Positions 8,818 to 64,000 of a DNA stretch of 64,000 bases are shown here, piece after piece. Source of the DNA: Panacagrimonas sp. (GTDB lineage Bacteria; Pseudomonadota; Gammaproteobacteria; Nevskiales; Nevskiaceae); contig JBFIES010000012.1 of assembly GCA_041603235.1 (NCBI GenBank), positions 33,951 through 97,950 on the forward strand, in the 5' to 3' direction. The position numbers and the translations under genes are program-made. Every line of letters begins with the position of its first letter. Positions within the stretch are counted from its first letter, which is position 1. The notes beneath the pieces were generated by a model. That model made no database searches, was not told the origin of the DNA, and was given only the letters and a program-made list of their open reading frames with translations.

Positions 8818-8902
8818 GAGAGTCCTGCGGGGGCGCACACCAATGTCGGTGTCCGTTCTGGGATGGTTCCCAATAAAACTTCCTCAGGAGAGGTTCTCAG
8901 CA

Positions 8903-9616: not shown

Positions 9617-9636
9617 GTCGAACTCAAGCGTTAAAG

Positions 9637-9660
9637 AAGGGGCCGAAAGGCCCCTTTTTT
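9637..9660 (+). terminator. Rho-independent terminator, between convergent genes
   Basis: aaggggcc-gaaa-ggcccctt followed by a T-run. Confidence 0.9.
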
Positions 9661-9685
9661 GTGCGCCGCTCCAGCGGTCTGCTGC

Positions 9686-11194: not shown

Positions 11195-11247
11195 GGCGAG
11201 CGGCGATCAGCTACGCGCTGTCGCCGCAATAAACAGGACGACAGATG

Positions 11248-11526
11248 CTATTTCGCAGCACTGCCATCGCTGCCGGAAGCACCCTGCTCCAGCTTTTCAA
11301 GGCGCGCCTCAAGTTCACGCAGGCGCTTCTGTGTTCGCGCGAGCACTTCCGCCTGCACGTCAAAACGCTCACGCGAGACCAAATCCCAGCGTTCGAGGTT
11401 GCTGCGCAGCACCGCCCTGAAATTGTCCTCCAGCTCAGCCCGCAAACTTCGAACGCCCGGCGGCAAGATGGCCGCTAGACGCTCTGCCAGTTCCTCTACG
11501 CCTCGAGTTGGATTCATCCGCTCCAT
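11248..11526 (-). CDS. ubiK: Ubiquinone biosynthesis accessory factor (BMFP family)
   Basis: DLVSRERFDVQAEVLARTQKRLRELEARLEKLE coiled coil; conserved position next to comM. Confidence 0.88.
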   Translation of the reverse strand: MERMNPTRGVEELAERLAAILPPGVRSLRAELEDNFRAVLRSNLERWDLVSRERFDVQAEVLARTQKRLRELEARLEKLEQGASGSDGSAAK

Positions 11527-11535
11527 ATCAGCTGA

Positions 11536-12831
11536 TCAGAGGAAGCGCAGGGCCACGATCGCCACCAGAGTTGGCGGAATCGCTGCAAACAAAAGACCCA
11601 AGGGGCTGATGGCCTCATCCTCGAAGCGAACCTTGAGGATAGAGAAACCAGCAGGGTTGGGCGCATTGGCAATGACGGTCAAGCCGCCACCGGTGACAGC
11701 ACCCGCCACCAGCATGTACTTGAACTGATCGCTCAAGCCTTCCACCAATGAACCGAGATAGGTCAGCGCCGCATTGTCGGTAATGGCGGTCAGCGCGGTC
11801 GCGCCGAAGTAAACCGCATCCGGGCTCATGTTGAGCAGCAAGGGTTGCAACCACCACTGCTGCTGGCCGCCCAGTACGACCAGGCCTGCCAGGAAGAAGG
11901 CCACCAACAGGCCCTCACGCACGATCAGGCGGCCCTGGTAATGCTGATAAGCCGTGGCAAAGCCCATGAAGAAGAGCAGCAGGCCCAGGAACAAGGCCGG
12001 ATGGTGGGCAAAGAACACCACGCCAAACAGGATGGCCACGTTCACCGCCATGATCTGTACCGGCACAGCCTCGCGCTTCGAAACCGGCGGTGCTGGCATG
12101 GCGCGCAATTCCTTGGCAAAGACCAGGCAAATCAGGGTGGCATTGGTCACCACTGCAATCGCCGCTTTCCAGCCGAAATGGGTGAGCATGAACATGATGT
12201 CCCAGTTCCATTTGCTCGCCACCATCAGTACGGGCGGAGCGGCAAACGGAGTGAGTACGCCGCCGATGGAAATATTGACGAAGAGCACGCCGACGGTGGC
12301 GTACTTGAAGCGCTTGGACAGATTCTCGTGGTGCAGGAAGCGATCGCGCAACATCAGCGCGCCGAGGGTCATTGCGGCAGGTTCGGTAATGAAGGAGCCC
12401 AGCAAAGGCACAAAGAACAGGATGCTGAAGAAGGTGGCCGGCCCGGACGGCAGGGGCACGATTTTGGATACGCCCGAAACCATCATCGAGGCCAGATCCA
12501 GAATGGGGCGGCTACCGGCCACGATCATGATCGCAAACACGAACATGGGCTCAGTGAAATTGCGCCCATCGATGTATTCCACTGCGGCGTCTTTTCCGAC
12601 CAGCGCGAACATGGTCATGATCAACACCATTGCCCAGAAGCCGAAGACCACCTCGACCTCACCCAGCAAATGGAAAATGCCCTCATGCGCTGGATGCTTG
12701 TGCGCAAGATGCTCGAAATATTTGGTCGAAAACGTGTGGATCAGCGCAATACCAAAGATTACGGCTGCCACGACATCAATAGTTGTTGGGTTCACGGCGG
12801 ATCTTGGGAATGTGGATGGCGTCTTGGTCAC
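11536..12831 (-). CDS. Putative Na+/H+ antiporter (Na_H_antiport_3/DUF1504-like)
   Basis: Polytopic membrane protein with HLLGEVEVVFGFW, GSFITEPAAMT, TAITDNAALTYL, GGGLTVIANAPNPAG. Start may be the GTG at 12795. Confidence 0.8.
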   Translation of the reverse strand: MTKTPSTFPRSAVNPTTIDVVAAVIFGIALIHTFSTKYFEHLAHKHPAHEGIFHLLGEVEVVFGFWAMVLIMTMFALVGKDAAVEYIDGRNFTEPMFVFAIMIVAGSRPILDLASMMVSGVSKIVPLPSGPATFFSILFFVPLLGSFITEPAAMTLGALMLRDRFLHHENLSKRFKYATVGVLFVNISIGGVLTPFAAPPVLMVASKWNWDIMFMLTHFGWKAAIAVVTNATLICLVFAKELRAMPAPPVSKREAVPVQIMAVNVAILFGVVFFAHHPALFLGLLLFFMGFATAYQHYQGRLIVREGLLVAFFLAGLVVLGGQQQWWLQPLLLNMSPDAVYFGATALTAITDNAALTYLGSLVEGLSDQFKYMLVAGAVTGGGLTVIANAPNPAGFSILKVRFEDEAISPLGLLFAAIPPTLVAIVALRFL

Positions 12832-12909
12832 TGTGACAACGGACCGGGGCTAAGTGTGCAACATTTGCATCGGCGATGCCCTTGTGAGCAAAGCAACGAT
12901 CCGTAAAAT

Positions 12910-12959
12910 TGGCGGCCCGGCGGAACCAGTGACCCGTCAGAGGGTCCATCAACCGCCCA
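12910..12959 (-). ncRNA. Probable nhaA-I (Li+/Na+-associated) riboswitch
   Basis: Minus strand reads GGGCGG-UUGAUG-GACCC(UCUGAC)GGGUC-A-CUGGU-UCCGCC-GGGCCGCCA. This matches my recollection of the nhaA-I conserved blocks, and it lies upstream of a cation antiporter. Not verified with a covariance model. Confidence 0.6.
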
Positions 12960-12980
12960 CAATTTCAAGAACGAAGGCAG

Positions 12981-13934
12981 ATGGTGAACTCGGACATTCT
13001 CATAGAGGCACGCGGCCTCACACGGCGCTTTGGCCCCAATGTGGCAGTCGACAATGTCAGCCTGCAATTGGCCCAGGGGGAAATCCTTGGTCTGCTCGGT
13101 CCCAACGGGGCTGGCAAATCGACCACTATGAAGATGCTGACCGGCAATCTCGCACCCAGCGAGGGTGAGGTCCTGATTCACGGCCAATCCCTGCGCGACC
13201 ATGAGATTCAAGCCAAGCAGCAACTCGACTACCTGCCGGAACAGCCGCCGGTGTATCCGGAACTGACCGTCGACGAGTACCTGCGCTACTGCGCCGGCTT
13301 GCACGGAATTTCCCGAAAGGACTGCGCCGAGGCCATGGCCTCGGCCAAGCGGGACTGCGGCCTGAGTGAGGTGGGCCGCCGCGTGATCGGCAATCTATCC
13401 AAGGGTTTCCAGCAGCGCGTGGGGCTGGCACAGGCCATTATTCATCGCCCGCCGGTGGTGGTGCTGGATGAGCCCACTGTTGGGCTGGATCCGATTCAGA
13501 TTCGCGAGATTCGGTCCCTGATCCGCAATCTGGGAGCCAACCACAGTGTGATTCTGTCCAGCCACATCCTTCCCGAGATACAGGCGGTTTGCTCTCGCGT
13601 GGTCATCATCAGCCGCGGCAAACTGGTCTACGACGCTCCGACGGACCGGCAGGCGGAAGACAGTGCCGTAATCATCCAGCTGGCACGTGCACCAGAACTG
13701 TCGGAGCTGGCGAGCGTCAGCGGCGTAGCCCGCGTGACCGCGCAGGAAAACGGACAGTTCACCCTGAACTTGAACCCTGGCGCTGATCCGCGCGAATCGC
13801 TGGTCAAGCTGGCGGTCAAGCACGACTGGGGGCTGCAGGAGCTGCGCCTGCAATCCAAGACCCTGGAAGAAATTTTTGTGGAACTGACGTCTGGCGAAGT
13901 CGCCAGCGAGGCCGCTTACGAGGAAGCCGCATGA
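12981..13934 (+). CDS. ABC transporter ATP-binding protein, GldA-like
   Basis: GPNGAGKST, LSKGFQQR, LDEPTVGLDP, SSHIL. Confidence 0.95.
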   Translation: MVNSDILIEARGLTRRFGPNVAVDNVSLQLAQGEILGLLGPNGAGKSTTMKMLTGNLAPSEGEVLIHGQSLRDHEIQAKQQLDYLPEQPPVYPELTVDEYLRYCAGLHGISRKDCAEAMASAKRDCGLSEVGRRVIGNLSKGFQQRVGLAQAIIHRPPVVVLDEPTVGLDPIQIREIRSLIRNLGANHSVILSSHILPEIQAVCSRVVIISRGKLVYDAPTDRQAEDSAVIIQLARAPELSELASVSGVARVTAQENGQFTLNLNPGADPRESLVKLAVKHDWGLQELRLQSKTLEEIFVELTSGEVASEAAYEEAA

Positions 13935-14674
13935 AGAATGTGATGTCGATTGCCGCTCACGAAACGCGGCGCATTTTTGTCTCGCCTCTGGCCTGGGCGG
14001 TTCTGGGCGTTGCCCAAGCCATTTTCGGCTACATCTTTGCCGGTTCGGTGATTCAGTATCTGAGAAATTCTGATGTTGCAGACCAGTCTGTAGGCGTCTC
14101 CGATTACGTGGGAAGCGGGCTCTATGGTTCGGCCACCATCATCCTGTTGCTGATCCTGCCCTTGATGACGATGCGCCTGTTTTCGGAGGAGCGGAAGTCC
14201 GGCACGCTGACCTTGCTGTTTTCCGCGCCCGTGAGCCTGATTGAAATCGTGCTCGGCAAGTTCTTTGGCGTCATGGTTTTCATTGCCGCCATGCTGGGCC
14301 TGCTGGCCCTGATGCCCGCCTCGCTGTTGCTGGCAGTTGATCTGGACATCGGTCGCCTGGCCGCAGGCCTGCTGGGCATTTTCCTGCTCACCATGTCTTT
14401 TGCAGCTTGCGGCTTGTTCATCTCCTCGCTCACGCGCGAGCCCACGATTGCGGCGGTCGGAACCTTTGCTGCCCTGCTGCTGATCTGGCTGCTGAAGATG
14501 CCGGCAAGTTTTGACACGCCCTTTGCTGCAGCATTCGATTACCTGTCGTTGATCAGTCATTACCAGAACCTGATCACGGGCCTGTTTGATTCCTCGGACG
14601 TGGCGTATTACCTGCTGTTTACCACGCTCTTTCTGTGGCTGACGGTGGTTCGCCTGGACATGGAACGCAATTGA
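13931..14674 (+). CDS. ABC-2 permease, GldF-like
   Basis: TMRLFSEERKSGTLTLLFSAPVS; about 6 TM helices; ATGA overlap with the ATPase. Confidence 0.9.
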   Translation: MKNVMSIAAHETRRIFVSPLAWAVLGVAQAIFGYIFAGSVIQYLRNSDVADQSVGVSDYVGSGLYGSATIILLLILPLMTMRLFSEERKSGTLTLLFSAPVSLIEIVLGKFFGVMVFIAAMLGLLALMPASLLLAVDLDIGRLAAGLLGIFLLTMSFAACGLFISSLTREPTIAAVGTFAALLLIWLLKMPASFDTPFAAAFDYLSLISHYQNLITGLFDSSDVAYYLLFTTLFLWLTVVRLDMERN

Positions 14675-14720
14675 AATTTCAGGTCGCCTCTCCGCGTCGC
14701 TATCGCAAATTTTTCGATCA

Positions 14721-16112
14721 ATGAAAAGCAAAGCACAAAATCTTGTCCAGCAGATCATCAGCGGACTGTTGATCATTGCCGTCATCATCGCGCTGGGCTG
14801 GTTGTCGGTTCGCTACAACTTCAAGCAGGACTGGACCTTCAACAATCGCAACACGATTTCCGAAGCGAGCCAGAAGCAACTGGCGTCGATGAAGGACCCG
14901 GTACGGATGATCGCCTTCGCCTATCCCGGTGCGCCGGAGCGTGCTTCGATCCAGTATTTCGTCGACCAGTATTCGCGCTTCAAGAAAGACTTCGAGATCG
15001 AGTTCGTTGACCCCAGCACGCAGCCGCAGAAGGTCAAGGAGTACGAGATATCCCTGGCGGGCGAAGTGGTGATCGAGTATCAGGGACGTCGTGAAACCTT
15101 GCGGACGATGTCCGAGCAGATCATCACCGAGACGCTGCAGCGGCTGAGCTATTCAGGCGAGAAATTCATCGTGTTTCTGGAAGGTCACGGTGAGCGCGCG
15201 GTGCTGGACTCAGACGCGCAGGGCGCGTTCACACATTTCGCGGAAGTGCTCCAGAGCAAGGGGCTCAAGGTCCAGCCGCTGAGTCTGGTCAGCAACCCCG
15301 CCGTGCCGGACAACGCTTCGGCGCTGGTCATCGCAAGCCCGCGCGGCCAGCTGCTTGAGGGCGAGATCAAGCTCATCAACGACTACATCGAGAAGGGCGG
15401 CAACCTGCTGTGGCTGGCCGACCCTGACAACCCTCCGGGTTTGCAGATGGTTGCCGATACGCTGGGCATTGAATGGCAAGATGGCTATGCCGTGTTTCCC
15501 GAGTACGAGTTGCTCGGCACCGGCCACCCCGGCATTTTCGCCGCGCTGGACTACCCGCCTAGTCCGGTCACCCAGGGCCTCGATCAGATCACCCTGTTCC
15601 CGCTAGTGCGGTCATTAACGGCACGCGAGGACAGCGGCTGGGTGGCCCAGCCGATGCTGACCAGCAGCCCCGCTGCCTGGCTGGAAACCCAGCCGCTGGA
15701 TGAGTCCGGTGTCGCGCTGGATGTAGACAAGGGCGACATTGCCGGCCCCCTGACCATCGGCATGAGTCTGACCCGCAACATCGATGACCCGGATGCGTCA
15801 GCGGCGTCTGAACAGGATCAGGATTCGGCCAAAGCGCAGAAGCAGCAGCGCGTGGTTTTGATTGGCGACGCCGATTTCATGTCCAACAGCAACCTCGGTC
15901 AGCTGGGCAATCAGCAGCTGGGCCTGAACATCATCCAGTGGTTGGCGAGTCGCGACGAGCAGCTCAACATCGACGTACCCAAGGCGCCGGACACCAACCT
16001 GTTCCTGCCGAGCTGGGCGGTGATTGTCCTCAGCGCCGGTTTTGTCATTGTGTTGCCCCTGCTGCTGATCGGCATCGGTGTCACGCGCTGGGTTCTGAGA
16101 CGGCGCCGATGA
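14721..16112 (+). CDS. GldG-family ABC auxiliary/periplasmic component
   Basis: N- and C-terminal TM helices, DWTFNNRNTIS, FLEGHGER, RVVLIGDADF. Confidence 0.88.
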   Translation: MKSKAQNLVQQIISGLLIIAVIIALGWLSVRYNFKQDWTFNNRNTISEASQKQLASMKDPVRMIAFAYPGAPERASIQYFVDQYSRFKKDFEIEFVDPSTQPQKVKEYEISLAGEVVIEYQGRRETLRTMSEQIITETLQRLSYSGEKFIVFLEGHGERAVLDSDAQGAFTHFAEVLQSKGLKVQPLSLVSNPAVPDNASALVIASPRGQLLEGEIKLINDYIEKGGNLLWLADPDNPPGLQMVADTLGIEWQDGYAVFPEYELLGTGHPGIFAALDYPPSPVTQGLDQITLFPLVRSLTAREDSGWVAQPMLTSSPAAWLETQPLDESGVALDVDKGDIAGPLTIGMSLTRNIDDPDASAASEQDQDSAKAQKQQRVVLIGDADFMSNSNLGQLGNQQLGLNIIQWLASRDEQLNIDVPKAPDTNLFLPSWAVIVLSAGFVIVLPLLLIGIGVTRWVLRRRR

Positions 16113-16143
16113 GCAGGATTGCCCCGCCCACAAAGCAATTCAC

Positions 16144-17034
16144 ATGAAAAGGCTCTACCTCAATCTCGTTCTGCTCGCCGTTCTGGCCGGGCTCGGTGTT
16201 GCGATCTGGCTGGCTCAGGAAGAAGAGGAAAAAGGTCCGCCCCTGACAGCCTTGAGCCAGGATCAGGTTACGCACATCAGCATCGCTCACCCCGATCAGT
16301 CCGCAATCGAACTGGAGAAAATCGAAGGTCAATGGCGGCTGGTGTCACCGGTCAAGGCGATTGCAGACAAGTACGAGGTCAACGGCATTCTGGCCCTGGC
16401 CACGCTGGAAATCGGCAAACAGCTGGACGGCGCAACGAACCTGTCTGAGCTTGGACTCGAACCACCGAAGTACAGCGTCACGCTCGATGATGTTCGTATC
16501 GATCTGGGCGGCACGGAGCCCATCAAGTTCCGCCGCTATGTCTCGACGGGCGGCAAAGTGGGCCTGGTCCCTGATCCGCCCAGCGCTGCGCTGGACGCCG
16601 ATTACTCAGATCTGGTGGCCAAGCAAATTGTCCCTGAAGGTCGCGAGATCACGCGGATCAGCCTGCCCGCACTCACACTGGAAAAGGCAGATGGCGGTGG
16701 GTGGAAGGCAGCGGAGGCGCCCGATGCCAAAGCCTCCGACCTGAGCGCTTTGGCAGAGTCCTGGCGTACTGCTAAGGCGATGTGGAATGCAGCGGAGCCC
16801 GCCGAAGGCTCCAGTGGGGATGCCATTACGCTCGTGCTCGATGATGGCGAGCAGATTGATCTGGTAGTGGCGGCCCGCAATCCGCAGCTGATTCTGTCGC
16901 GGCCGGCGCTGGGCATGCGTTACACGCTGTCCAAAGCCCTGACCGAGACCTTGCTGCAATTGCCAGCCCAAGCGCCGGAAGCTGACGGCGAGTCACTGGC
17001 AGAAGAAGCGCCGGAAGCTGAGGCTCAGCAATAG
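16144..17034 (+). CDS. DUF4340 domain protein
   Basis: N-terminal anchor, WRLVSPVKAIAD, LSELGLEPP; usual last gene of Gld-like ABC modules. Confidence 0.8.
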   Translation: MKRLYLNLVLLAVLAGLGVAIWLAQEEEEKGPPLTALSQDQVTHISIAHPDQSAIELEKIEGQWRLVSPVKAIADKYEVNGILALATLEIGKQLDGATNLSELGLEPPKYSVTLDDVRIDLGGTEPIKFRRYVSTGGKVGLVPDPPSAALDADYSDLVAKQIVPEGREITRISLPALTLEKADGGGWKAAEAPDAKASDLSALAESWRTAKAMWNAAEPAEGSSGDAITLVLDDGEQIDLVVAARNPQLILSRPALGMRYTLSKALTETLLQLPAQAPEADGESLAEEAPEAEAQQ

Positions 17035-17044
17035 ACTGGAAAAT

Positions 17045-18094
17045 TCAGCGTTTGAATTTTTCTTCTGCGAGCTGATCGGCAATATCGCTGGTCGGAAGCT
17101 TCAGCTCCTCTGACTTTGCGAATATCTGCGTGAGTGTCGGGCCGATTTGCCGGACATGTGATTCGACATCGGCCCAGCGCCGCGTATCGCCCTCGTAGTA
17201 GAGATTGATGATGCCGCCGGCATTGATCGCGTAATCAGGCGCATACAACACACCGCGATCCAGCAGAGCCTGACCGTGACGCGGTTCGGCCAGTTGATTA
17301 TTGGCGGCACCGGCCACGATGCCCGCACGCAATAAGGGAATGCTTTGATCATTTAGGACAGCGCCCAGAGCACAAGGCGCAAGAACATCCACATCCTGAT
17401 GCAGGACGTCATTCATGGAGACAGCTTGCGCCGCAAACTGCTGCACACAGGCCTCAACAGCCGGCGCATAGCTGTCACAGACCCACAGTTTTGCGCCGGC
17501 TTCGTGCAGATGCCGAGCCAGAACCTGCCCCACCTTGCCCACGCCCTGGATCGCAACGCGCAGGCCTTGAAGCTCATCGCGGCCCAGCTTGAATCGCACG
17601 GCCGCCTGGATGCCGACAAAAACACCCAGGGCCGTCGCCGCCGAGGTGTCCCGATCACCAGGGTCATTGGCGTTGGGCGCGGCGCCATGCCCGCCAATGT
17701 GGCTGGTTTCGCGAAGCATCTCGCGCATGTCAGCCTCATCTGTGCCTGAATCTTCGGCCACCCGATAGCGACCGCCGAGTGAGTGCACCAGACGGCCCAT
17801 GGCCTGCATCATCTGTGGCGTCTTGTTCCGGCGTGGGTCCGCGATCACCACGCTCTTGCCGCCACCCTGCCGCAAGCCCGCCAGTGCCGCCTTGTAGGTC
17901 ATGCCGCGCGAAAGGCGCAGGACATCGGTCAGCGCGTCCGCATCATTGGCGTAGTCATAGACCCGGCAGCCGCCCAGCGAGGGTCCAAGTGCGGTACTGT
18001 GGACCGCAATGATCGCCCGCAGACCCGATTCAGCGTCGAATCCGTAGACAATCTCTTCGTGTTCGTCGAACTCGGGGTGGTCAAAAACGCTCAT
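17045..18094 (-). CDS. Leu/Val/Phe dehydrogenase (ELFV family)
   Basis: MSVFDHPEFDEHEE, DVLRLSRGMTYK, GGGKSV, AEDSGT, GVGKVG, YAPDYAINAGG. Confidence 0.93.
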   Translation of the reverse strand: MSVFDHPEFDEHEEIVYGFDAESGLRAIIAVHSTALGPSLGGCRVYDYANDADALTDVLRLSRGMTYKAALAGLRQGGGKSVVIADPRRNKTPQMMQAMGRLVHSLGGRYRVAEDSGTDEADMREMLRETSHIGGHGAAPNANDPGDRDTSAATALGVFVGIQAAVRFKLGRDELQGLRVAIQGVGKVGQVLARHLHEAGAKLWVCDSYAPAVEACVQQFAAQAVSMNDVLHQDVDVLAPCALGAVLNDQSIPLLRAGIVAGAANNQLAEPRHGQALLDRGVLYAPDYAINAGGIINLYYEGDTRRWADVESHVRQIGPTLTQIFAKSEELKLPTSDIADQLAEEKFKR

Positions 18095-18269
18095 GGCGGG
18101 CCCTGAAAGATGGTTCACCATCATAGTCAAGCACAGTCGACCTGTGTTCCAGGCTGAACTTGGAGCGATATTTGCCAATCAAAGCTGTCCTGGCATTGCA
18201 CCGCCTTCAGTCTCATGCGCCGACCCACTTAGTGCGTATGATCATCAGACCTTTTCAAGGTAATCAAAC

Positions 18270-21200
18270 ATGCCGCTGCACGCTGCTCTGAGCCACAAGA
18301 CCGACTACAAGTACGACCGGAGGGTGACGCTGTCACCGCAGATCATTCGCCTGCGACCCGCGCCGCATTCTCGTACACGCGTGCTGAGTTATGCCCTGCG
18401 CGTTGAGCCCACACCCAATTTCATCAACTGGCAGCAGGATGCCTTTGCCAACTGGCAGGCGCGCGCGGTTTTTCCTGAACCGGTGGATCACTTCTCGGTG
18501 CATGTCGATCTGATTGCCGACATGGCGGTGTACAACCCCTTCGATTTTTTCATCGAACCCAGCGCAGAGCATTTTCCGTTCAAGTACGACAGCCTGCTGA
18601 GTCGGGACCTGGAACCTTACCTGCGCTGCGACCCATTGACGCCGGTGTTCAAGAAGACCCTCGATGAGATCTCTCTGGCACCGCAACGCACCGTCGATTT
18701 CCTGATGGGCCTCAATCAATCCTTGCAGCAGAAGATCAGTTACCTGATTCGCATGGAGCCGGGTGTGCAGACGCCGGAAGAAACCCTGAGCAAGGCTTCG
18801 GGTTCATGCCGCGACTCCGCCTGGCTCATGGTCCAATTGCTGCGCAATCTGGGGATGGCTGCGCGCTTTGTTTCCGGCTATCTGATTCAGCTCACGCCGG
18901 ATGTGAAATCACTCGACGGCCCCAGCGGAACGGAATACGACTTCACTGATCTTCACGCATGGTGCGAGGTATTCCTGCCCGGCGCCGGCTGGATCGGCTT
19001 TGATCCCACGTCCGGACTGATGACAGGCGAAGGACACATTCCCCTGTGCGCGACACCGGAGCCCTCCAGTGCTGCGCCGATCACCGGTGCGATGAGTTCG
19101 GCCAAGGGCGGCAAGATTGAAACCGAGTTTTCGCACGATATGAAGGTGACACGCGTGGAAGAAAGCGCGCGCGTGACCAAACCCTACAGCGAGGCGCAGT
19201 GGGAGCAGATTGACGCCCTGGGTTATCGGGTGGATGAGCAGATCAAGGCGAGTGATATGCGCCTGACCATGGGTGGCGAGCCCACCTTCGTCTCCATTGA
19301 CGACATGCAAGGAGATGAATGGAACACCGCGGCGCTGGGCCCCATGAAGGAGGAACTTGCTGACCAGCTGATTCAGCGACTGCGCGATCGCTTTGCTCCT
19401 GGCGGACTGATCACTTACGGTCAGGGCAAGTGGTATCCCGGCGAGCCTCTGCCGCGCTGGGCTGACGCGCTTTACTGGCGCGAAGATGGCGAGCCCGTGG
19501 TGAGTCGCGATTTCAATCAAGGCACACGAAAAGCGGATACCGCGTCTGCACAGGCATTCATCCGCGCACTCGCAGAACAACTTGGGATCAATCCCGGCTT
19601 CGCCATTCCCGGATTCGAAGATGCGTTCTACTCGGTGCACCGCGAGCAGCGTCTGCCGGACAACCTGACGCCGGAAGCAGGCAAGCTGAATAGCGCCGAA
19701 GCACGTGCGCGCATTGCCGCAGCACTATCAGAGGGTCTTGATGAGCCTGTCGGCTATGTTCTGCCTGCGCAGAAGATGGCCGGAAAGGCGCGTTGGCAAT
19801 CGGCAGCCTGGACGTTCCGGACCGGGCGCATGTTCCTGATCCCCGGTGACTCGCCCATGGGTTTGCGTCTTCCCCTGGATGCCTTGCCCTGGATTCCCAA
19901 GGAAGCCTACCCACAAATCATTCCGCTGGATTCCTTCGCCCCGCGCGCCGCGTTGCCTGCGAAATCGCAATTGCCCGCCGCACCTGCACCGACGGCGACT
20001 CAAGGCAGCGCCGACGAAGGCAATCCACGTTCCGCCATTGCGGTTCAGGCTCGCGAGGGCAGGCTTTGTGTTTTCCTGCCTCCAGTAGAAGACGCGGCAG
20101 ATTTCCTGGAACTGATCTCCTGCATCGAGCAGGCCGCGAATACGCTGGATGTGCCGGTTCGGGTGGAAGGTTATGCGCCGCCGGTCGACTCCCGGATCAA
20201 CGTGCTTCGGGTAACGCCAGACCCCGGCGTTATCGAGGTCAATATTCATCCTGCGCATTCCTGGGAGCAACTCCGCGACATCACCATAGGCTTGTATGAG
20301 GAAGCGCGGGAGAACCGGCTCGCAACCGAAAAATTCCTGATCGATGGTCGGGCAACCGGCACCGGTGGCGGCAATCACATCGTCGTCGGCGCCGCCAAAC
20401 CCGAAGATTCTCCGTTTCTGCGCCGCCCGGACATGTTGGCGAGCATGCTCCGTTTCTGGCAGAACCATCCTTCACTGAGCTATCTGTTCTCCGGATTGTT
20501 TGTGGGAACCACCTCGCAGCATCCACGCCCCGATGAGGGCCGTGACACCGCGCTGTACGAGCTGGAAATAGCGCTCGCACAGCTGCCGCAGGCCGGGAGC
20601 ATTCTGGATCAGAATCAGTTTCCGCTTTGGTGGGTGGATCGGCTGTTCCGCAATCTGCTGATTGATGTGAGCGGCAATACCCATCGCACAGAAATCTCGA
20701 TCGACAAGCTCTACTCACCCGATGGCCCCACAGGCCGTCTGGGCCTGACCGAGATTCGCAGCTTTGAAATGCCGCCACACGCACGCATGTCCCTGGTGCA
20801 GCAGTTGCTTGTCCGGGCGCTACTGGCCTCGTTCTGGAAGCAGCCTTATGAGGCGCCATTGATCCGTTGGGGCACGCGTCTTCACGACGAATTCATGCTG
20901 CCGCATTTTGTCTGGAAAGATTTTCTTGATGTGCTGGGCCAACTGCGGGGCTGGGGCTTTGGTTTTGAGGCGGCATGGTTTGATCCGCATTTCGAGTTTC
21001 GCTTTCCCAAGCATGGCGCGATCAATCACGAGGGCATCGAAATTGAGTTGCGCCATGCACTGGAGCCCTGGCCGGTTCTCGGTGAGGAGTCTGCAGGAGG
21101 GGGTACCACGCGCTTTGTAGACTCAAGTCTGGAACGCATGCAGATCAAGACGCGGGGGCTGATTCCAGGCCGTCACTTTGTCACCGTCGCAGGGCGCCGC

Positions 21201-21551
21201 CTGCCATTGCGGGCGACCGGGGTGCGGGACGAATTTGTCTGCGGCTTGAGATACCGCGCCTGGAAACCGGTGTCTGCATTGCATCCGACGATTGATGTGC
21301 ATAGCCCGCTGGGTTTTGATTTATACGATGCCCAGTACCAGCGCGCCGTCGCTGGTTGCGTGTATCACGTGATGCATCCGGCGGGTCGTAACTATGAGAC
21401 TTATCCGGTCAACAGTTACGAAGCCGAGGCGCGCCGCCTTTCGCGGTTCGAGGCCAATGGCCACTCCACGGACACTTACGTGCCGAAGCAGGAAGTACCG
21501 AATCCGGACTTCCCCTGCACGCTCGATCTACGCAGACCCAGCGGCATGTAA
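18270..21551 (+). CDS. Transglutaminase-domain protein fused to DUF2126 putative amidoligase
   Basis: N-terminal transglutaminase triad motifs GSCRDSAW, DLHAWCEVFLPGAGWIGFDPT; C-terminal TPDPGVIEVN, GTGGGNH, HRTEISIDKL, ELRHALEPW. Confidence 0.92.
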   Translation: MPLHAALSHKTDYKYDRRVTLSPQIIRLRPAPHSRTRVLSYALRVEPTPNFINWQQDAFANWQARAVFPEPVDHFSVHVDLIADMAVYNPFDFFIEPSAEHFPFKYDSLLSRDLEPYLRCDPLTPVFKKTLDEISLAPQRTVDFLMGLNQSLQQKISYLIRMEPGVQTPEETLSKASGSCRDSAWLMVQLLRNLGMAARFVSGYLIQLTPDVKSLDGPSGTEYDFTDLHAWCEVFLPGAGWIGFDPTSGLMTGEGHIPLCATPEPSSAAPITGAMSSAKGGKIETEFSHDMKVTRVEESARVTKPYSEAQWEQIDALGYRVDEQIKASDMRLTMGGEPTFVSIDDMQGDEWNTAALGPMKEELADQLIQRLRDRFAPGGLITYGQGKWYPGEPLPRWADALYWREDGEPVVSRDFNQGTRKADTASAQAFIRALAEQLGINPGFAIPGFEDAFYSVHREQRLPDNLTPEAGKLNSAEARARIAAALSEGLDEPVGYVLPAQKMAGKARWQSAAWTFRTGRMFLIPGDSPMGLRLPLDALPWIPKEAYPQIIPLDSFAPRAALPAKSQLPAAPAPTATQGSADEGNPRSAIAVQAREGRLCVFLPPVEDAADFLELISCIEQAANTLDVPVRVEGYAPPVDSRINVLRVTPDPGVIEVNIHPAHSWEQLRDITIGLYEEARENRLATEKFLIDGRATGTGGGNHIVVGAAKPEDSPFLRRPDMLASMLRFWQNHPSLSYLFSGLFVGTTSQHPRPDEGRDTALYELEIALAQLPQAGSILDQNQFPLWWVDRLFRNLLIDVSGNTHRTEISIDKLYSPDGPTGRLGLTEIRSFEMPPHARMSLVQQLLVRALLASFWKQPYEAPLIRWGTRLHDEFMLPHFVWKDFLDVLGQLRGWGFGFEAAWFDPHFEFRFPKHGAINHEGIEIELRHALEPWPVLGEESAGGGTTRFVDSSLERMQIKTRGLIPGRHFVTVAGRRLPLRATGVRDEFVCGLRYRAWKPVSALHPTIDVHSPLGFDLYDAQYQRAVAGCVYHVMHPAGRNYETYPVNSYEAEARRLSRFEANGHSTDTYVPKQEVPNPDFPCTLDLRRPSGM

Positions 21552-21565
21552 GCTTGCTGTGATTC

Positions 21566-21593
21566 AAGGGCGCGGTCCTGACCGCGCCCTTTG
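21566..21593. terminator. Bidirectional terminator hairpin
   Basis: aagggcgcggt-cctg-accgcgccctt between convergent genes. Confidence 0.8.
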
Positions 21594-21608
21594 CAAGCCA
21601 GTCGCTTT

Positions 21609-23099
21609 TTAGTTAGCGGTCAGTGGTGCGAGCGCAATGATGTCCAGGAAGGGCTGCGGATATAGACCGAGCACAAAGCTGGCGAGCGTGACTGCCAACA
21701 CGACGGCACCGCCAGTCTGCAAGCCCCAGTTTCTGGGCGCTTCAAAGCGTTCCTGACTGTCGCGGTCCATGAACATGATGATCATGAGCCTGAGGTAGTA
21801 GAACAGACCAATCGCGCTACCGAGCACCACACCGCCCAGCAACCACCATTGCTGCGCATCGACACCGGCCATGATGACGTAGAACTTGCCGATGAATCCT
21901 GCGGTGGCCGGAATGCCTGCCAGCGACAGCAGCATCGCGGTAAGAATGGAGCTGATGTAGGGGCGACGCCAGAACAGGCCACGGTAATCCTCAAGCTGGT
22001 CAGCATCACCTTCGTTGTTGAAGGGGCTGGACAGCAGGGTCACAACGCCGAGAACACCGAGTGTTGTCACCACGTAGGTCAGGATGTAGACGCCCACGGC
22101 CTCAACGGCGAACTCGCCGGAGGAAATAAGCGCCACCAAGCAGTAGCCAAAGTGTGCGATGGAGGAATACGCCAGCATTCGCTTGACGTTGTCCTGCAGC
22201 AGAGCCAGCACATTGCCCACGATCATGGACAGGATGGCCAGGACGGTCAGCACATTGAGCAGGTTCGCACTCTCATAGACCTGGGCCTCGATGAAGTATC
22301 GAAGCAGTACGGCAAACACGGCTGTCTTGCTCGCAGTGGCCAGGAACGAGGTGACCGGCGCGGGCGCTGCTTCATATACGTCCGGTGTCCACAGGTGGAA
22401 AGGAACCACGGACAGCTTGAAGCCGATGGCGACCAGGATCATCGCGCTCCCCAGACCAACGATGCCGTCGAGTGATTCAGCCTGTACGAAATACTGACCG
22501 ATCTTGTCGAAGCTCATGTCTCCGACCTGAGCGTAGACCAATGCCATGCCGAACAGCAGGAACGCGGATGCAGCGGCGGACAGGATCAGGTACTTGAGGC
22601 CGCCTTCGAGTGCGCCACGCGATTGCGTCGGGTAGGCAATCATCGCGTAAAGCGGGATGGACAGCAGTTCCAGGCCGATGAAGAAGGAGGCGAAGTGGCA
22701 GCTCGACACCAGCACCATGCCGCCCAGGGCCGCGAGCGCCAGAAGAAGATACATCTCTTCCTTGTTGCCCTTGTAGCCTTCCAGATAGCCATGCGACAAG
22801 GTGGCGCAAGCTAAGGTACAGACACTGATAATGCCGCAGTAGAACAGTGCGTAGTTGTCGATGCGCAACAGGGGTGTGACCTGGATCGGCAAGATTTTGG
22901 GCACGACTTCCGGGGCCAGCGCGGGGCCGAAGAACAAGATCGCCACGGAAACCCAGGCCAGGTTTCCAAAGAAGATCCCGACGGTCGGATTCCAGAAATG
23001 GTGACGCTTGATGGCGATCGCCAGCATCACCGCAATGACCGCAATGCTGGTGAAAAGGATGGGCGACAGGGCGGCCCAGTGGTGCCAGGTCATGCTCAT
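21609..23099 (-). CDS. nuoN: NADH:quinone oxidoreductase subunit N
   Basis: FIGLELLSIPLY, GFKLSVVPFHLWTPDVYE, KRMLAYSSIAH. Confidence 0.97.
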   Translation of the reverse strand: MSMTWHHWAALSPILFTSIAVIAVMLAIAIKRHHFWNPTVGIFFGNLAWVSVAILFFGPALAPEVVPKILPIQVTPLLRIDNYALFYCGIISVCTLACATLSHGYLEGYKGNKEEMYLLLALAALGGMVLVSSCHFASFFIGLELLSIPLYAMIAYPTQSRGALEGGLKYLILSAAASAFLLFGMALVYAQVGDMSFDKIGQYFVQAESLDGIVGLGSAMILVAIGFKLSVVPFHLWTPDVYEAAPAPVTSFLATASKTAVFAVLLRYFIEAQVYESANLLNVLTVLAILSMIVGNVLALLQDNVKRMLAYSSIAHFGYCLVALISSGEFAVEAVGVYILTYVVTTLGVLGVVTLLSSPFNNEGDADQLEDYRGLFWRRPYISSILTAMLLSLAGIPATAGFIGKFYVIMAGVDAQQWWLLGGVVLGSAIGLFYYLRLMIIMFMDRDSQERFEAPRNWGLQTGGAVVLAVTLASFVLGLYPQPFLDIIALAPLTAN

Positions 23100-24661
23100 G
23101 GCGTCACTCCATTGCTGGCAGCTGCAGTGAGCGCTTCAACAGGTTGCGCGGTGGCATAGATTGCGGCGACATGCTGCATGGAGGCGGCCGAGGTATCGAG
23201 GAATGACTGTGGATACAAACCGATCCACAACATGATGATCATCAGCGTGCCCAGCATGACGAGTTCGCGTTTTGAGAGATCTTCCAGATGTTCCGGGAGT
23301 TCGTCTGTCTGGCTGGGGCCATGGAATGCCCGCTGAATCAGCATCAGGGAGTACACAGCTGCAATGATCAGGCCCGTAGACGCGAAGATGGTGACGATGG
23401 GATCAATATTCCAGGAGCCGACCAGGATCAGGAACTCGCCGACGAAATTGCCCAGGCCCGGAAGACCAAGAGAGGCCGCCACAAAGAACAGCATGATCGG
23501 TGGCAGATAGGGGAAGCGCGACCACAAGCCGCCCATCTTTCTCAGGTCTCGGGTGTGCATGCGCTCATAGATCTCACCGCAGAGGATGAACAGGGCGCCA
23601 GCGGAAATTCCGTGCGCCAGCATCTGGATGACAACGCCCTGCAAGGCGATCTCGGTTCCTGCATAAATCCCGATGAGCACGAATCCCATGTGCGAGATCG
23701 AGGAGTAGGCAACCAGCCGTTTCACATCGGTTTGTGCAAATACCAGGATGCCTGCGTAAATAATGCCGGCAACACCCAGCCACATGGCGATCGGCGCGAA
23801 CTCCGCCGAAGCATTGGGGAAAATCGGAATGGCAAAGCGCAGCATGCCGTAAGCCGCAGTCTTGAGCAGAATTCCGGCGAGGTCGACCGAGCCTGCTGTC
23901 GGCGCCTGTGAGTGGGCGTCTGGCAACCAGCTATGCAGCGGTACTGCAGGTGTCTTTACCGCGAAGGCAAAGAAGAATCCGAGCATGAGAATGTATTCAA
24001 CATTCGCACTCATCTCCGTCTTGAGCAGGTCTTCGTAATTGAAGGTGATGACGCCGGTGCCCTGATAATTGACGAATACCAATCCCAGGATGGCGAGCAA
24101 CATCACCAGACCCGAAGCCTGCGTGAAGAGGAAGAACTTGGTAGCCGCGTACACCTTGCCCTTTCCGCCTGGGGTGTCATGCCCCCACAGTGCGATCAGG
24201 AAGTACATCGGAACCAGCATCATCTCCCAGAGGAAGAAGAACAGGAACAGATCGAGCGTGAGGAACACGCCCACCACGCCACCCAGATTCCACAGCAGAT
24301 TGAGGTGGAAGAATCCGACGTTGCGATCAATTTCCCGCCAGGAGCAGATGATGGCCATCACGCCCAGCAGGTTGGTAAGCAGAATCAGCAGGATGGAAAG
24401 ACCATCCAGTGCGAAGTGGAACGAGATACCCAATCTCGGAATCCACGGCGCCTGATACTCGATCACCCACGTCGGGGCTTCGCCAACCAGCGACGGCAGG
24501 CTGTAGTCGTAGCTCAGCCAGAGATAGATGGAGATGCCGCTGGCGATCAGCATGCCGGCCAGCGCAATCCATCGCGGGTACTTGGTGCCGAAGCGAAGTT
24601 CAGCCTGCCAGCTCAGCAGGCCGGCAATGAAGGGGATGAGGATGAGCCAGACAAGGACCAT
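23096..24661 (-). CDS. nuoM: NADH:quinone oxidoreductase subunit M
   Basis: FWEMMLVPMYFLI-like motif, PLHSWLPDAHSQAPTAGS, KRLVAYSSISHMG. Confidence 0.97.
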   Translation of the reverse strand: MVLVWLILIPFIAGLLSWQAELRFGTKYPRWIALAGMLIASGISIYLWLSYDYSLPSLVGEAPTWVIEYQAPWIPRLGISFHFALDGLSILLILLTNLLGVMAIICSWREIDRNVGFFHLNLLWNLGGVVGVFLTLDLFLFFFLWEMMLVPMYFLIALWGHDTPGGKGKVYAATKFFLFTQASGLVMLLAILGLVFVNYQGTGVITFNYEDLLKTEMSANVEYILMLGFFFAFAVKTPAVPLHSWLPDAHSQAPTAGSVDLAGILLKTAAYGMLRFAIPIFPNASAEFAPIAMWLGVAGIIYAGILVFAQTDVKRLVAYSSISHMGFVLIGIYAGTEIALQGVVIQMLAHGISAGALFILCGEIYERMHTRDLRKMGGLWSRFPYLPPIMLFFVAASLGLPGLGNFVGEFLILVGSWNIDPIVTIFASTGLIIAAVYSLMLIQRAFHGPSQTDELPEHLEDLSKRELVMLGTLMIIMLWIGLYPQSFLDTSAASMQHVAAIYATAQPVEALTAAASNGVTP

Positions 24662-61287: not shown

Positions 61288-62223
61288 TCAGGATTTCTTG
61301 CGAAGGCGGCTCTCGGCGTTCTTGCCCATGTGCTCTACGCCACGTTCCTGCGCAAGTTGTAGTTGTTTGATCCGCTCACGCAAGCCGTCACGGCGATGCT
61401 CGCTGAGCTGATCAAGGCAATACTCGCAAGACACGCCCTCTTCGTAAGCCGGATGTTGGCGCTGCTCGATCGTCAGCGGACTCTTGCAGCCGAAACACAG
61501 CCGCGCATCGCCTTCCTCCAACCCATGCCCCACGCTGACGCGTCCATCAAATACAAAGCATTCACCTTTCCACAGACTTTCTTCGACAGGCACGGCCTCC
61601 AGATAACGCAAGATGCCTCCCTTGAGCTGCGATACGTTCTGGTATCCCTTGTCCAGCAGATAAGCAGACGCTTTCTCGCACCTGATACCGCCCGTGCAAT
61701 ACATCGCGATGGGCGTATCCGGATTGGCTTCCAGTTTGTCTTCAACGTACTGCGGGAACTCGCCAAAGCTGACCGTTTGAGGGTCAATCGCATTCTCGAA
61801 ATGACCAATGCGGTACTCGTAGTCATTTCGGGCATCGATCAAGATCACATCATCTCTGGCAATCAGCTCATTCCAGGCCTCGGCGTCAACATAGTGACCC
61901 GTTCGCTTTGCGGGATTGATGGACGGCACGCCCATCGTGACGATCTCTTTCTTCAAGCGAACGCGCATGTGACGAAAGGGACGCTGTTCCGCCGTTGATT
62001 CCTTGTACTCGAGATCCCTGAACTCTGGTTGGTCTCTCAGGAACTGAATCAAATCGAGGATCGAAGATCGACTCCCCGCGATCGTGCCGTTGATGCCTTC
62101 GCTCGCCAATAAAAGCGTGCCGCAGAGATCGAGCGCCTCGCACTGCGCTTCTAGCAGCGGCTGAAACGCCCGATAGCGCTCGAACGAAGCAAAGTGGTAA
62201 AGCGCAGCGACGGTGAAGCTCAT
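61288..62223 (-). CDS. trhO: Oxygen-dependent tRNA uridine(34) hydroxylase, rhodanese-domain
   Basis: LLASEGINGTI, VRLKKEIVTMG, IDARNDYE, YCTGGIRCEKAS, GECFVFDGR. Confidence 0.92.
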   Translation of the reverse strand: MSFTVAALYHFASFERYRAFQPLLEAQCEALDLCGTLLLASEGINGTIAGSRSSILDLIQFLRDQPEFRDLEYKESTAEQRPFRHMRVRLKKEIVTMGVPSINPAKRTGHYVDAEAWNELIARDDVILIDARNDYEYRIGHFENAIDPQTVSFGEFPQYVEDKLEANPDTPIAMYCTGGIRCEKASAYLLDKGYQNVSQLKGGILRYLEAVPVEESLWKGECFVFDGRVSVGHGLEEGDARLCFGCKSPLTIEQRQHPAYEEGVSCEYCLDQLSEHRRDGLRERIKQLQLAQERGVEHMGKNAESRLRKKS

Positions 62224-62467
62224 GGTCGCGTCACTTTGCGTCACTAACAGGAGCAACGAGCCTTACGCTGCTGCGACTTAGAAGCTGCGATAAGAACATT
62301 GTTGTCACGATGCATTATGAGGGTGGGCTAGAAATGGTCTCATGCCCGACAAGCTTATCGGCATGTATCACTAGTTGGTTCAGCCTGCGACGCTGACTAA
62401 GGTCTTGAGAAACTTGACCTAGTGCCAACCCAACCGAACAACTCCGGCTGGGTCTGACACGCAAATT

Positions 62468-62512
62468 TGGCGCGCTTGAGACGATTCGAACGTCCGACCC
62501 CTGCCTTCGGAG
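62468..62512 (-). mobile_element. att site: displaced 3' half of tRNA-Arg(CCG) marking the border of an integrative element
   Basis: Minus strand CTCCGAA-GGCAG-GGGTC-GGACG-TTCGAAT-CGTCT-CAAGCGC-G-CCA gives anticodon loop, 3' anticodon stem, T arm, acceptor strand and CCA. The 5' half is absent. Confidence 0.88.
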
Positions 62513-62553
62513 CCCACTTTCAGGGGCCGATTCAGGCCTACTTTACGCTACAT

Positions 62554-62590
62554 CAACTGCTTCTAATCGACTTCTAAGCAGTTGTTTTTT
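62554..62590 (+). repeat. Inverted repeat with T-run (terminator-like or att-arm)
   Basis: caactgctt-N13-aagcagttg followed by TTTTTT; contains direct repeat cttctaa twice. Confidence 0.6.
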
Positions 62591-62633
62591 GCCACAACTA
62601 ATTGATTTTAATAGTCAATTAAGGTCAATTAAC

Positions 62634-62684
62634 GCTGTGACAGATCTGCCTTTGAAATTGACCGTTTTCCATAACTGTCACAGC
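62634..62684. repeat. Perfect 10-bp inverted repeat with 31-nt spacer
   Basis: gctgtgacag at 62634-62643 and ctgtcacagc at 62675-62684. Confidence 0.75.
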
Positions 62685-63162
62685 ACTTGGGCACGGCTTT
62701 TCAAACTCAGAATGACGCTTGCCCACACTATACCAATGCCTGCTCAGTCAGGTACTCCGCGGTCAGAAGACGGACAGGCTAACTGAGCTGTATTCACCCA
62801 GAGGACGAGGCTTCACCACACCTAGCGCACATGGAGCATGGCGACCTGACACTTGCCAGGGAACCTGCCGACCCACTCGCGGTACGAATTTCGCCGACAA
62901 GCATTAGGCCATCCCTCCGGCGCTCAGAGGAGGTTGGCTGGTGGGAAGTGGGGGGACAAGTCGCGCGCTAAAAGGCGGCGAGCCTGGACGCATACAGCAA
63001 TCGCTCCACTGAAACGCAGTCGCCGACCCTAGAAACCGCACTTAAACCTGTTCAAATTCCGTTACTTGGCTAACCGTGACCTTTTGGTCAGGCATAGGCG
63101 TTTCGCGTACCCCAAGACGGTGGCTACCGTGTCTGCCACACCCATGGCGTCGCAGAGAACCC

Positions 63163-64000
63163 GTGCTCGACAACTCAGGACACAGCACTTCGCTTCATTC
63201 CGCGACGAACGACGTCTCTTTAGTTCGCGCCATCAGTGAGCCGACAAGCAGGGACCTGCTGAAGATTCTCTACAACGCTGACGAACTGCCAGTCCAATTC
63301 AAGCTCGGCATCTACGTTGCCAACCGGCTCGACAAAGTAGCTGCCCTGATCCCGAGCTGGCATGCCCTACACGCCGCGACATGCGCGGCGGCAAGGCACG
63401 TTCGCGCTGCGTCCAATCCCATAGAGTCCGAGGTCTCGCTCAGTCGAGCGGATCACGGTCATGTTGAACTGCGCTCGCTCTGGGCCCTGATGATCCTCAA
63501 TCACGGCCGCACCGAGGGGACGCCCGCCGATCCTCTCCGAGCTCTCGTCCTGCTCCATGCGTGGGAAGGACAAACGGACGATCTTCGAGCACTCGCACAG
63601 CAGATCAATGCGTTCGTGAAGAAGCTCGACGCGGAGCCGGACCTTAACAGCACATTCCACCTGAAGGCTTATCTCGCCCAGCCGGGATTGGGTTTGGAAG
63701 CGGCGCGCAGCGACCTTGAATCGGCCATGAGCCAATGCTCGGCTTCGAAAGCTGCGCGAACAGCGTTGCGCAGGCTGCTGGAGGAAGCCGATAAGTTCCT
63801 GATTCACCGCCAAGATGTGGCGCGCGCGAATCCCATTGAAGGCGGGTCTCGCATTCAGCGAAGCTGGATGGAAGGGGCGCCCGACAAGATCCGCACGCGC
63901 GGCGGAGAAGAGGCACTTCTTTCAAAACCCGACAGGAATCCTGTCCCGGCCAATATGGCCCAGCGCACAACGATGCGTTCTGCCTACCTGATGCAGAAGT
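63163..64000 (+). CDS. Hypothetical island protein, truncated by the window edge
   Basis: Manual translation finds no stop from about 63080 to 64000; GTG at 63163 gives MLDNSGHST...LLKILYNADELPVQFKLGIYVANRLDKVAALIPSW...AYLMQK (279+ aa). Not in the ORF track. Confidence 0.7.
   Translation, partial: MLDNSGHSTSLHSATNDVSLVRAISEPTSRDLLKILYNADELPVQFKLGIYVANRLDKVAALIPSWHALHAATCAAARHVRAASNPIESEVSLSRADHGHVELRSLWALMILNHGRTEGTPADPLRALVLLHAWEGQTDDLRALAQQINAFVKKLDAEPDLNSTFHLKAYLAQPGLGLEAARSDLESAMSQCSASKAARTALRRLLEEADKFLIHRQDVARANPIEGGSRIQRSWMEGAPDKIRTRGGEEALLSKPDRNPVPANMAQRTTMRSAYLMQK

Follow-up and report, generated by a model that had tools for sequence, protein, structure and literature searches.

Results

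The edge of an island at a tRNA-Arg(CCG) gene

The window analysed here, a 64,000-nucleotide stretch (C12:33951-97950) of the genome of a marine Panacagrimonas-like metagenome-assembled genome (MAG; 14 contigs, 3.82 Mb, designated G000), contains close to its right end one border of an integrative island that has split a tRNA-Arg(CCG) gene. Positions are those of the window unless prefixed (C6, C11 and C12 are contigs of the source genome), and L numbers denote extracted sequence stretches. Conserved chromosomal sequence borders the 3' part of the split gene. It holds trhO (UPF0176/rhodanese; 61288..62256, minus strand; Pfam UPF0176_N and Rhodanese domains), which is followed by the displaced 3' half of the tRNA gene (62468..62512, minus strand). 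The first 11 bp of this half, CTCCGAAGGCA (62502..62512, minus strand), consist of the 7-nt anticodon loop and 4 nt of the stem. Beyond them lie 650 bp of non-coding DNA (62513..63162) and then, on the plus strand, the first 279 codons (63163..64000) of an open reading frame (ORF) for a giant protein of 1,682 amino acids (aa), which runs on to C12:102158 and, as will be seen, is a candidate integrase.

On the minus strand, 62468-62512 reads CTCCGAAGGCAGGGGTCGGACGTTCGAATCGTCTCAAGCGCGCCA, 45 nt that correspond to nt 33-77 of tRNA-Arg(CCG), beginning with base 1 of the anticodon loop and ending with the encoded CCA. In order, these are the anticodon loop (CTCCGAA), the 3' strand of the anticodon stem (GGCAG), the variable loop (GGGTC), the T arm (GGACG-TTCGAAT-CGTCT), the 3' acceptor strand (CAAGCGC), the discriminator base (G) and CCA. 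The sequence before the loop, ..CCCCTGAAAGTGGG / ..GGCCCCTGAAAGTGGG, is unrelated to any tRNA 5' half; ARAGORN calls no complete tRNA in the whole window, and an Rfam scan of 62000-64000 returned nothing real. The source genome has exactly one intact tRNA-Arg(CCG) gene (C6 c1057-1133, minus strand), in addition to a tRNA-Arg(UCG) gene, and the fragment equals it at 46 of the 48 positions from base 1 of the loop to 3 nt beyond the CCA (BLAST E = 7e-18), a match far beyond chance. As the identity begins at 62512, base 62513 is already part of the insert.

An empty site and the two halves of the target

The uninterrupted site is found in the closest relative in the genome set, a Panacagrimonas MAG (G011) in which trhO, an intact tRNA-Arg(CCG) gene and a gene for an MBL-fold hydrolase are contiguous; the TrhO proteins of the two genomes are 95% identical. 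By BLAST, positions 1-5510 of the G011 stretch L014 are collinear with C12 90969-96462 (95.7% identity, trhO included) and positions 5500-19000 with C6 1174-14674 (93.7% identity). The intact G011 tRNA sits exactly where the two blocks join, 11 bases (L014 5500-5510) fall in both of them, and the fragment in the window aligns to the 3' half of this tRNA, which occupies the corresponding place in the chromosome. Compared with G011, then, all that lies between C12:96462 (window 62512) and C6:1174 has been inserted. We refer to the border in the window, on the side of the 3' half, as attR and to the junction on C6, on the side of the 5' half, as attL.

Read in the sense of the tRNA, C6 passes from the end of the MBL-hydrolase gene into GCGCTTGTAGCTCAGCTGGATAGAGTACTGCC-CTCCGAAGGCA, nt 1-43 of the tRNA (C6 1216-1174), an orphan 5' half of the form GCGCTTG..CTGCC-CTCCGAAGGCA that ends abruptly; 40 unrelated nt, ATCGTCAGACC...CACCCAAA, follow, and then the complete 77-nt tRNA-Arg(CCG). 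The orphan 5' half and the 3' half in the window overlap by the 11-bp core, which is thus a direct repeat with one copy at each junction (C6 1184-1174 and 62502..62512) and presumably the site of crossover. A target-site duplication of 11 bp made by a transposase was rejected as the origin of the repeat, since junctions at these same positions are met again in genomes that are unrelated and at other tRNAs.

The relationship between the three pieces of tRNA is revealed by their stems. Those of the intact gene on C6 are GCGCCTG/CAGGCGC and CTTCC/GGAAG, and the 3' half in the window differs from that gene twice, with GGCAG in place of GGAAG and CAAGCGC in place of CAGGCGC. Both differing positions pair with the orphan 5' half (CTGCC, GCGCTTG) and not with the CTTCC and GCGCCTG of the intact gene, and when the two halves are joined in silico they yield a perfect 77-nt tRNA in which every stem is paired. 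This covariation, together with the perfect rejoining, indicates that the halves were once a single functional gene, parted by one insertion. On the evidence of its sequence, the intact tRNA-Arg(CCG) is a different, wholly element-borne allele situated 40 bp inside the junction.

It is at this point that the locus parts company with the classical model of a tRNA-gene island, in which attP carries the 3' part of the tRNA and regenerates the target (PMC4383910), such that the intact gene is made of a host 5' part and an element 3' part. That geometry is the usual one, with 3,760 of 3,919 Islander islands leaving a 3' fragment (PMC4383910), and the window taken alone looks exactly like the border of an island of this kind. 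As in Islander islands, the fragment is co-oriented with the intact cognate tRNA gene (both are on the minus strand of contigs that are both plus-collinear with G011), a candidate integrase gene lies between them, ~650 bp inside the fragment, and a relative has the uninterrupted site. The target, however, has not been regenerated by island sequence fused to a host part: a separate host 5' half survives as an orphan, with the intact tRNA 40 bp downstream of it, the intact gene departs from this half in both stems whereas the 3' half in the window complements it, and the 5'-half junction of C6 is seen, free of mismatches, in a second metagenome (X3). We therefore regard a classical island as highly improbable here. 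The second-sample junction, along with a depth in the source metagenome that is equal for both junction contigs (~17-18x), also argues against an artefact of binning or assembly.

A first-pass annotation, made from the letters of the window, had described a 45-bp tRNA 3' half that starts at the anticodon loop and lacks its 5' half, and on this the reading of the sequence, ARAGORN and BLAST agree. It had proposed that an integrative element at the anticodon loop extends to the right beyond the window, to be checked against relatives lacking the island, and the empty site in G011 bears this out; the intact minus-strand tRNA-Arg(CCG) that it placed at the far end is indeed present, on another contig (C6). 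The classical geometry that it assumed does not survive the finding of a host 5' half (C6 1216-1174) that covaries with the 3' half in the window and is separate from the intact tRNA. The fragment is confirmed as a genuine border of a mobile island at the anticodon loop of tRNA-Arg(CCG).

A recurrent module around the replacement tRNA

The arrangement seen at attL is not confined to the source genome. In three relatives (G009, G013 and G002) a 5' half ending ...CTCCGAAGGCA is followed by ~41 nt beginning ATCGTC and then by a whole tRNA-Arg(CCG), and the module, its GTGCCCAAA repeats included, is shared by the source and these three members of its genus. Conservation extends over the spacer, the tRNA and ~205 nt downstream in G000, G001, G009 and G013 (the contig of G002 ends within the tRNA and that of G001 begins inside the spacer). 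The downstream ~205 nt hold three to six direct copies of GTGCCCAA(A)G, and beyond them the genomes differ. The CTTCC/GGAAG variant of the element-borne gene of the source is also that of the tRNA in G001. In G013 two stacked 5' halves, each ending ...CTCCGAAGGCA, precede the whole gene (C143; L034/L045 ~2019-2340), in what looks like a record of serial insertions; the same genome has a lone 3' half with a 1-nt deletion on C179 (L059 1653-1702), after which comes the ~120-nt flank that also follows the whole gene.

These comparisons bear on another possible history, in which two elements arrived in succession: first an island that left a 3' fragment and then one that left a 5' fragment and has since decayed to the 40-nt remnant, so that the intact tRNA would be chimeric. 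Tandem arrays at tRNA genes are common, and both geometries occur in the family of the giant protein (described below), where G062 has a displaced 5' half with the full tRNA 118 kb away. A spacer of ~41 nt that is of equal length and similar sequence in four or five genomes is nonetheless unexpected for the remnant of a random deletion, within the intact tRNA the two halves agree at both of the variable stem pairs, the unusual CTTCC/GGAAG among them, and this variant is a single unit in G001. We consider it unlikely that two elements made the present locus; a two-element history may explain the first origin of the module.

Around the two junctions there are short repeats that might serve an integrase. 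The non-coding arm next to attR (62513..63162), for which no homologous DNA was found in the 129 family genomes, contains GTCAATTAA twice, two inverted repeats and, as a repeat search and a motif census established, one copy of GTGCCCAAG (62687-62694). This copy, 174 bp into the insert from attR, is oriented like a triple copy beside the element tRNA. Genome-wide the 8-mer occurs at 0.036 sites per kb, which gives p ~0.02 for one site in the attR arm, and nowhere in the genome is it clustered more densely than in the triplet (C6 915-937). The GTGCCCAAA repeats are putative arm-type binding sites that would be present on both arms of attP.

The contig of G001 that carries the element-type tRNA-Arg(CCG) (C36) continues directly downstream of it into a run of defence-like genes (L046 472-15202). 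They encode an Mrr-type restriction endonuclease bearing a zinc ribbon and two HNH proteins, as well as an SbcC-like AAA_27 ATPase accompanied by a metallophosphoesterase, a UvrD-like helicase and an AbiEii-like ATPase.

A giant tyrosine-recombinase-like protein

The 1,682-aa ORF starts with a GTG at 63163, ~650 bp inside the border, and is read in the direction away from the tRNA fragment; from a second possible start, the GTG at 63076, the protein would have 1,711 aa. Its C-terminal region (~aa 1270-1440) holds the complete catalytic set of a tyrosine recombinase, R1282, K1314, H1385, R1388, H1389 and Y1432, in that order. An alignment of the 15 closest family members conserves the motifs GLR(x)GE, G(L/R)xKT, LHxLRH and G(H/Q) and the YWH tyrosine; all 15 share R, K, R, H and Y, H1385 is replaced by Tyr in two, and the His-III position, which follows the invariant G1421, is Gln in the source protein. 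Searched against the PDB with phmmer, the catalytic part of the single sequence has no match, and the family profile finds the integrase 3nkh across all of the motifs (E = 4e-6) and the XerC-like 4a8e (E = 0.011). The cut-off of Pfam Phage_integrase (PF00589) is not reached by the source protein, five close relatives also have no match, and of seven more distant relatives three score above the cut-off and four below it, all in the aligned region.

An exhaustive HMMER search with the C-terminal 611 residues retrieved only 40 representative clusters among 1.84 billion proteins, mostly of 1,300-1,880 aa, and where these have public names they are 'hypothetical protein' or 'integrase'. Scanned against genome contigs, the giant protein had no relatives; a word-based homology search returned the protein itself alone, and PADLOC gave no match for it.

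A second conserved block lies in the middle of the protein (R563, D586-K587, R596, R672 and G694-H695) and is recombinase-like by eye, with no tyrosine conserved at the position of the nucleophile. An AlphaFold model of aa 440-800 from a seven-sequence alignment (pLDDT 72, pTM 0.69) has as its top PDB folds mostly tyrosine recombinases and type IB topoisomerases, among them 3nkh, the integron integrase, Tn1549 Int, XerD, XerH, Cre and lambda Int, although the matches are weak (best E = 0.027, probability 1.0). As judged from this model, the middle domain (~aa 520-730) appears to have a recombinase fold that lacks the tyrosine, and the giant protein thus appears to join such a module and a complete one in a single chain.

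The giant gene family sits at tRNA genes

Thirteen members of the family, twelve from relatives and that of the source locus, were examined for adjoining pieces of tRNA. A tRNA gene or half lies within ~650 bp of the 5' end of the giant gene in eight of the thirteen (seven of the twelve relatives), and five of these eight share a divergent 3'-fragment geometry, across 26-36% identity and with two target tRNAs. Apart from the source locus, with its Arg(CCG) 3' half divergent at ~650 bp, an Arg(CCG)-type 3' fragment that begins at CTCCGAAGG and adjoins trpS is divergent from the giant gene of G131 (26% identical) at a distance of 160 bp, and an Arg(CCG) 3' half, also starting with CTCCGAAGG, is divergent from that of P0005 (31% identical) at ~450 bp. 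The divergent piece is a Pro(CGG) 3' half beginning at the loop for P0002, at a contig end, and an internally deleted Pro(CGG) 3' fragment for G009 (contig C47, ~190 bp). P0007 has a whole tRNA, divergent, and P0008 a tRNA 3' end at a contig edge, co-oriented. At G062, an Arg(CCG) 5' half ending ...CTCCGAAAGCA is co-oriented with the giant gene at 175 bp and is identical to the 5' half of a full tRNA on the same strand 118 kb away, which makes this an island of the 5'-fragment type. Adjacency on this scale cannot be chance, and it argues that the family consists of the integrases of elements that use tRNA anticodon loops.

The two target tRNAs of the family, tRNA-Arg(CCG) or tRNA-Pro(CGG), have loops, CTCCGAAG and CTTCGGGAG, that are near reverse complements of each other (L066 1-45 and L030 ~6772-6800, as compared with 62502-62512). 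Both orientations of the core relative to the giant gene are seen, that of G000 on the one hand and that of G062 and the Pro types on the other, and a quasi-palindromic core may allow both.

On the contig of P0007, ~400 bp upstream of the giant gene and divergent from it, Rfam recognises a complete tRNA (L064 5491-5597, minus strand; 62 bits) with the loop CUUAUAA and the anticodon UAU. Its anticodon stem and T arm are set apart by an insertion of 36 nt, perhaps the scar of an integration or else a variable arm of an unusual kind, and ARAGORN does not call this tRNA. Just downstream of the giant gene on the contig of P0004 is a bacterial ubiquitin-like conjugation cluster (L065 5733-8514) consisting of BubE, a ThiF/E1 protein with JAB, and a multi-ubiquitin protein with E2.

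Extent and content of the insert

The assembled part of the insert amounts to 8,818 bp on C12 (96463-105280) and 1,173 bp on C6, and the insert as a whole is at least 10 kb long. The end of C12 is formed by the final 141 bp of an IS3-family element; the element is present in two copies, with ~2x the coverage of its flanks. This end overlaps none of the contigs, the start of C6 resembles the end of C11 at 87% only, no inverted-repeat relation was found between the ends of C12 and C6, and Logan contigs are too short to link them. The GC content of the insert (0.52-0.61, against a genome average of 0.59) does not mark it as an island.

Among the ORFs examined in the assembled 10 kb, a single one matches a family. 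This 86-aa ORF (C6 464-724, minus strand; L002 464-724) encodes the toxin-binding domain of an Xre/MbcA/ParS antitoxin (PF09722, E = 1e-12); no RES-type toxin or other toxin partner is recognisable downstream of it, where C6 136-335 matches short sequences on C1, C2, C5 and C11. The four larger island ORFs have no match in Pfam, NCBIfam or PADLOC, and a 231-aa ORF downstream of the giant gene has no detectable kinship with ORFs of similar size downstream of its homologues. No conjugation genes, parA or ordinary integrase were seen among the ORFs examined. The first-pass annotation had also expected a tyrosine recombinase and defence genes. A recombinase-like ORF does lie just inside the border, although not one of the ordinary ~400-aa kind, as it encodes 1,682 aa without a Pfam match; of defence genes none is recognisable in the assembled cargo.

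Elsewhere in the source genome, at C11 106110-107248 and 123285-124534, a tRNA-Met gene has an ordinary Phage_integrase gene within ~700 bp after it, and these are classical islands. The last 141 bp of C11 (148977-149117) are 87% identical, in inverted orientation, to the first 150 bp of C6, and C11 also carries a 54%-identical paralogue of the 171-aa ORF of the island; the islands thus share modules. Near the end of a 23.7-kb contig of lower GC content, C14, there are irregularly spaced copies of a 68-81-nt repeat that are 79-96% identical (~18300-23700).

Discussion

In the reading that we favour, and think likely, a site-specific island split the chromosomal tRNA-Arg(CCG) gene and carries a whole replacement tRNA, and the giant protein is its likely integrase. 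The element would insert into the anticodon loop of the tRNA gene by recombination within the 11-bp identity CTCCGAAGGCA, as the direct repeat at both junctions suggests. Its attP would have no tRNA 3' part able to regenerate the target, so that the target is left as two dead halves, the 5' half by the MBL-hydrolase gene on C6 and the 3' half by trhO. The element compensates with its own complete tRNA-Arg(CCG), 40 bp inside attL and among the GTGCCCAAA repeats, and the integrase would be the 1,682-aa protein encoded divergently ~650 bp inside attR.

As three copies of the core are present in the locus, in the 5' half, the element tRNA and the 3' half, the outcome of recombination would depend on the pair that takes part, and the element may still be able to excise. 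Were the outer two to recombine, the original tRNA would be restored. Recombination of the element tRNA with the 3' half would instead leave a scar consisting of the 5' half, ~41 nt and a whole tRNA, and this resembles what is seen in the related genomes. Serial insertion into the tRNA of a previous element would give rise to stacked 5' halves.

The giant protein is most likely the integrase of the island. It might alternatively be cargo, or have another role such as defence or resolution, with an ordinary integrase in the assembly gap moving the island. Several observations weigh against the reading that we favour, and some of them lend themselves to this alternative. In G119, P0005 and P0007 the giant homologues have ordinary integrase genes 1-4 kb away, the neighbourhoods of the giant family are rich in defence-like genes, and the insert has its ends on separate contigs, with an unbridged gap that starts from the IS3-family element and could hide an ordinary integrase. 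Five of the twelve relatives have no tRNA piece right beside the giant gene (G119, G111, P0004, P0006 and G001, of which some of the first four are at short contig ends), and the attL-type modules of G009, G013 and G002 have no close homologue of the giant protein adjoining them. As to the protein itself, it is unrecognised by Pfam and NCBIfam, its catalytic domain alone has no Pfam hit at E values up to 10, and a single-sequence AlphaFold model of this domain is uninformative (pLDDT 37). An hhalign comparison of the middle and C-terminal domains is not significant, so that an internal duplication is not shown by sequence. Finally, neither a circular attP nor an empty-site allele was found in the contigs of four metagenomes; contigs of this kind lose rare variants, and the result does not speak for their absence. 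What speaks against a role as cargo is that the catalytic residues are conserved, that eight of the thirteen family members have a tRNA piece within ~650 bp of the gene, five of them in the same divergent 3'-fragment geometry, and that none of the eight PF00589 matches in the source genome is near either junction. A cargo role seems to us improbable on balance.

At the homologue of the giant gene in G001, which has no adjoining tRNA piece, there is a copy of the 11-bp core alone, ~2.5 kb upstream of the gene. On this contig (C40) the core CTCCGAAGGCA (L031 4174, minus strand) is preceded by CCCCTGAATGCCCA, which resembles the CCCCTGAAAGTGGG of the attR arm in the window, and is followed by degenerate tRNA-like sequence; the giant homologue is cut there by the contig end.

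The island can be set beside known systems. The closest in outline are the tRNA islands that insert at the anticodon loop (the 'A' sublocation; Williams 2002; Islander, PMC4383910), with which it shares an identity block that begins at the anticodon loop, a displaced fragment, a recombinase gene just inside the border and an empty site in a relative (PMC4383910). It differs from them in that the target is not regenerated, 5' and 3' fragments both stay, and the complete tRNA lies 40 bp from the core; the recombinase, moreover, is ~4x the usual size and undetected by Pfam Phage_integrase. A precedent for the supply of a replacement exists in the integrative and conjugative elements (ICEs) of Pasteurellaceae, which disrupt tRNA-Leu yet bring an intact copy (PMC6028734). 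ICEPmu1/ICEMh1-type elements are alike in splitting their target and supplying its replacement, but they have a different target (tRNA-Leu), host group, integrase and gene content, and their intact tRNA comes after parA in a conjugative element (PMC6028734). The features of the ICEHin1056/ICEPmu1 type, namely a type IV secretion system, conjugation genes, parA and a tRNA-Leu target, were not seen in the assembled part of the island, and the target is a tRNA-Arg.

The apparent architecture of the protein brings to mind a third group, as RIT, GInt, the strand-biased circularizing elements (SE) and Tn554 use several tyrosine-recombinase-fold modules of which one, Tfp/GinC, is without the catalytic motif (PMC10214605). 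They recall the Tyr-less middle domain and complete C-terminal domain of the source protein, but, likened as they are here by description, their modules are individual proteins of normal length from the genes of an operon, whereas those of the source are apparently fused in ~1,700 aa; their targets and element ends also differ from those of the island (PMC10214605). In the assembled part there is a single giant ORF and no end operon of three or four recombinase-related genes of the RIT/GInt/SE type. A full-text literature search, within the library searched, turned up no account of bacterial tyrosine recombinases that are giant or have tandem domains.

The mechanism departs from textbook regeneration of the target, and the likely integrase belongs to an undescribed giant family. 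We would go further tentatively, at what we feel to be slightly less than an even chance, and propose that the ~1,700-aa proteins are a class of single-chain, two-module tyrosine integrases specific for Arg(CCG)/Pro(CGG) anticodon loops, to which the Panacagrimonas islands with their portable tRNA would belong. The near-reverse-complement loops could then explain both insertion orientations, and in the Panacagrimonas lineage a portable whole tRNA would take the place of an attP that regenerates the tRNA.

Islands at tRNA genes are the chief means by which bacteria acquire genes for defence, resistance and metabolism. These considerations have a practical side, as software for finding islands assumes regeneration borne by attP, and islands like the one described here, with the 5' halves that they leave behind, would be mis-mapped or missed. 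The giant family is rare, as the 40 representative clusters indicate. If the candidate integrase is active, its architecture would be new among site-specific recombination systems, and recombinases that recognise new targets might be drawn from it. For the host, the consequence is that it depends on the element for its sole tRNA-Arg(CCG) gene.

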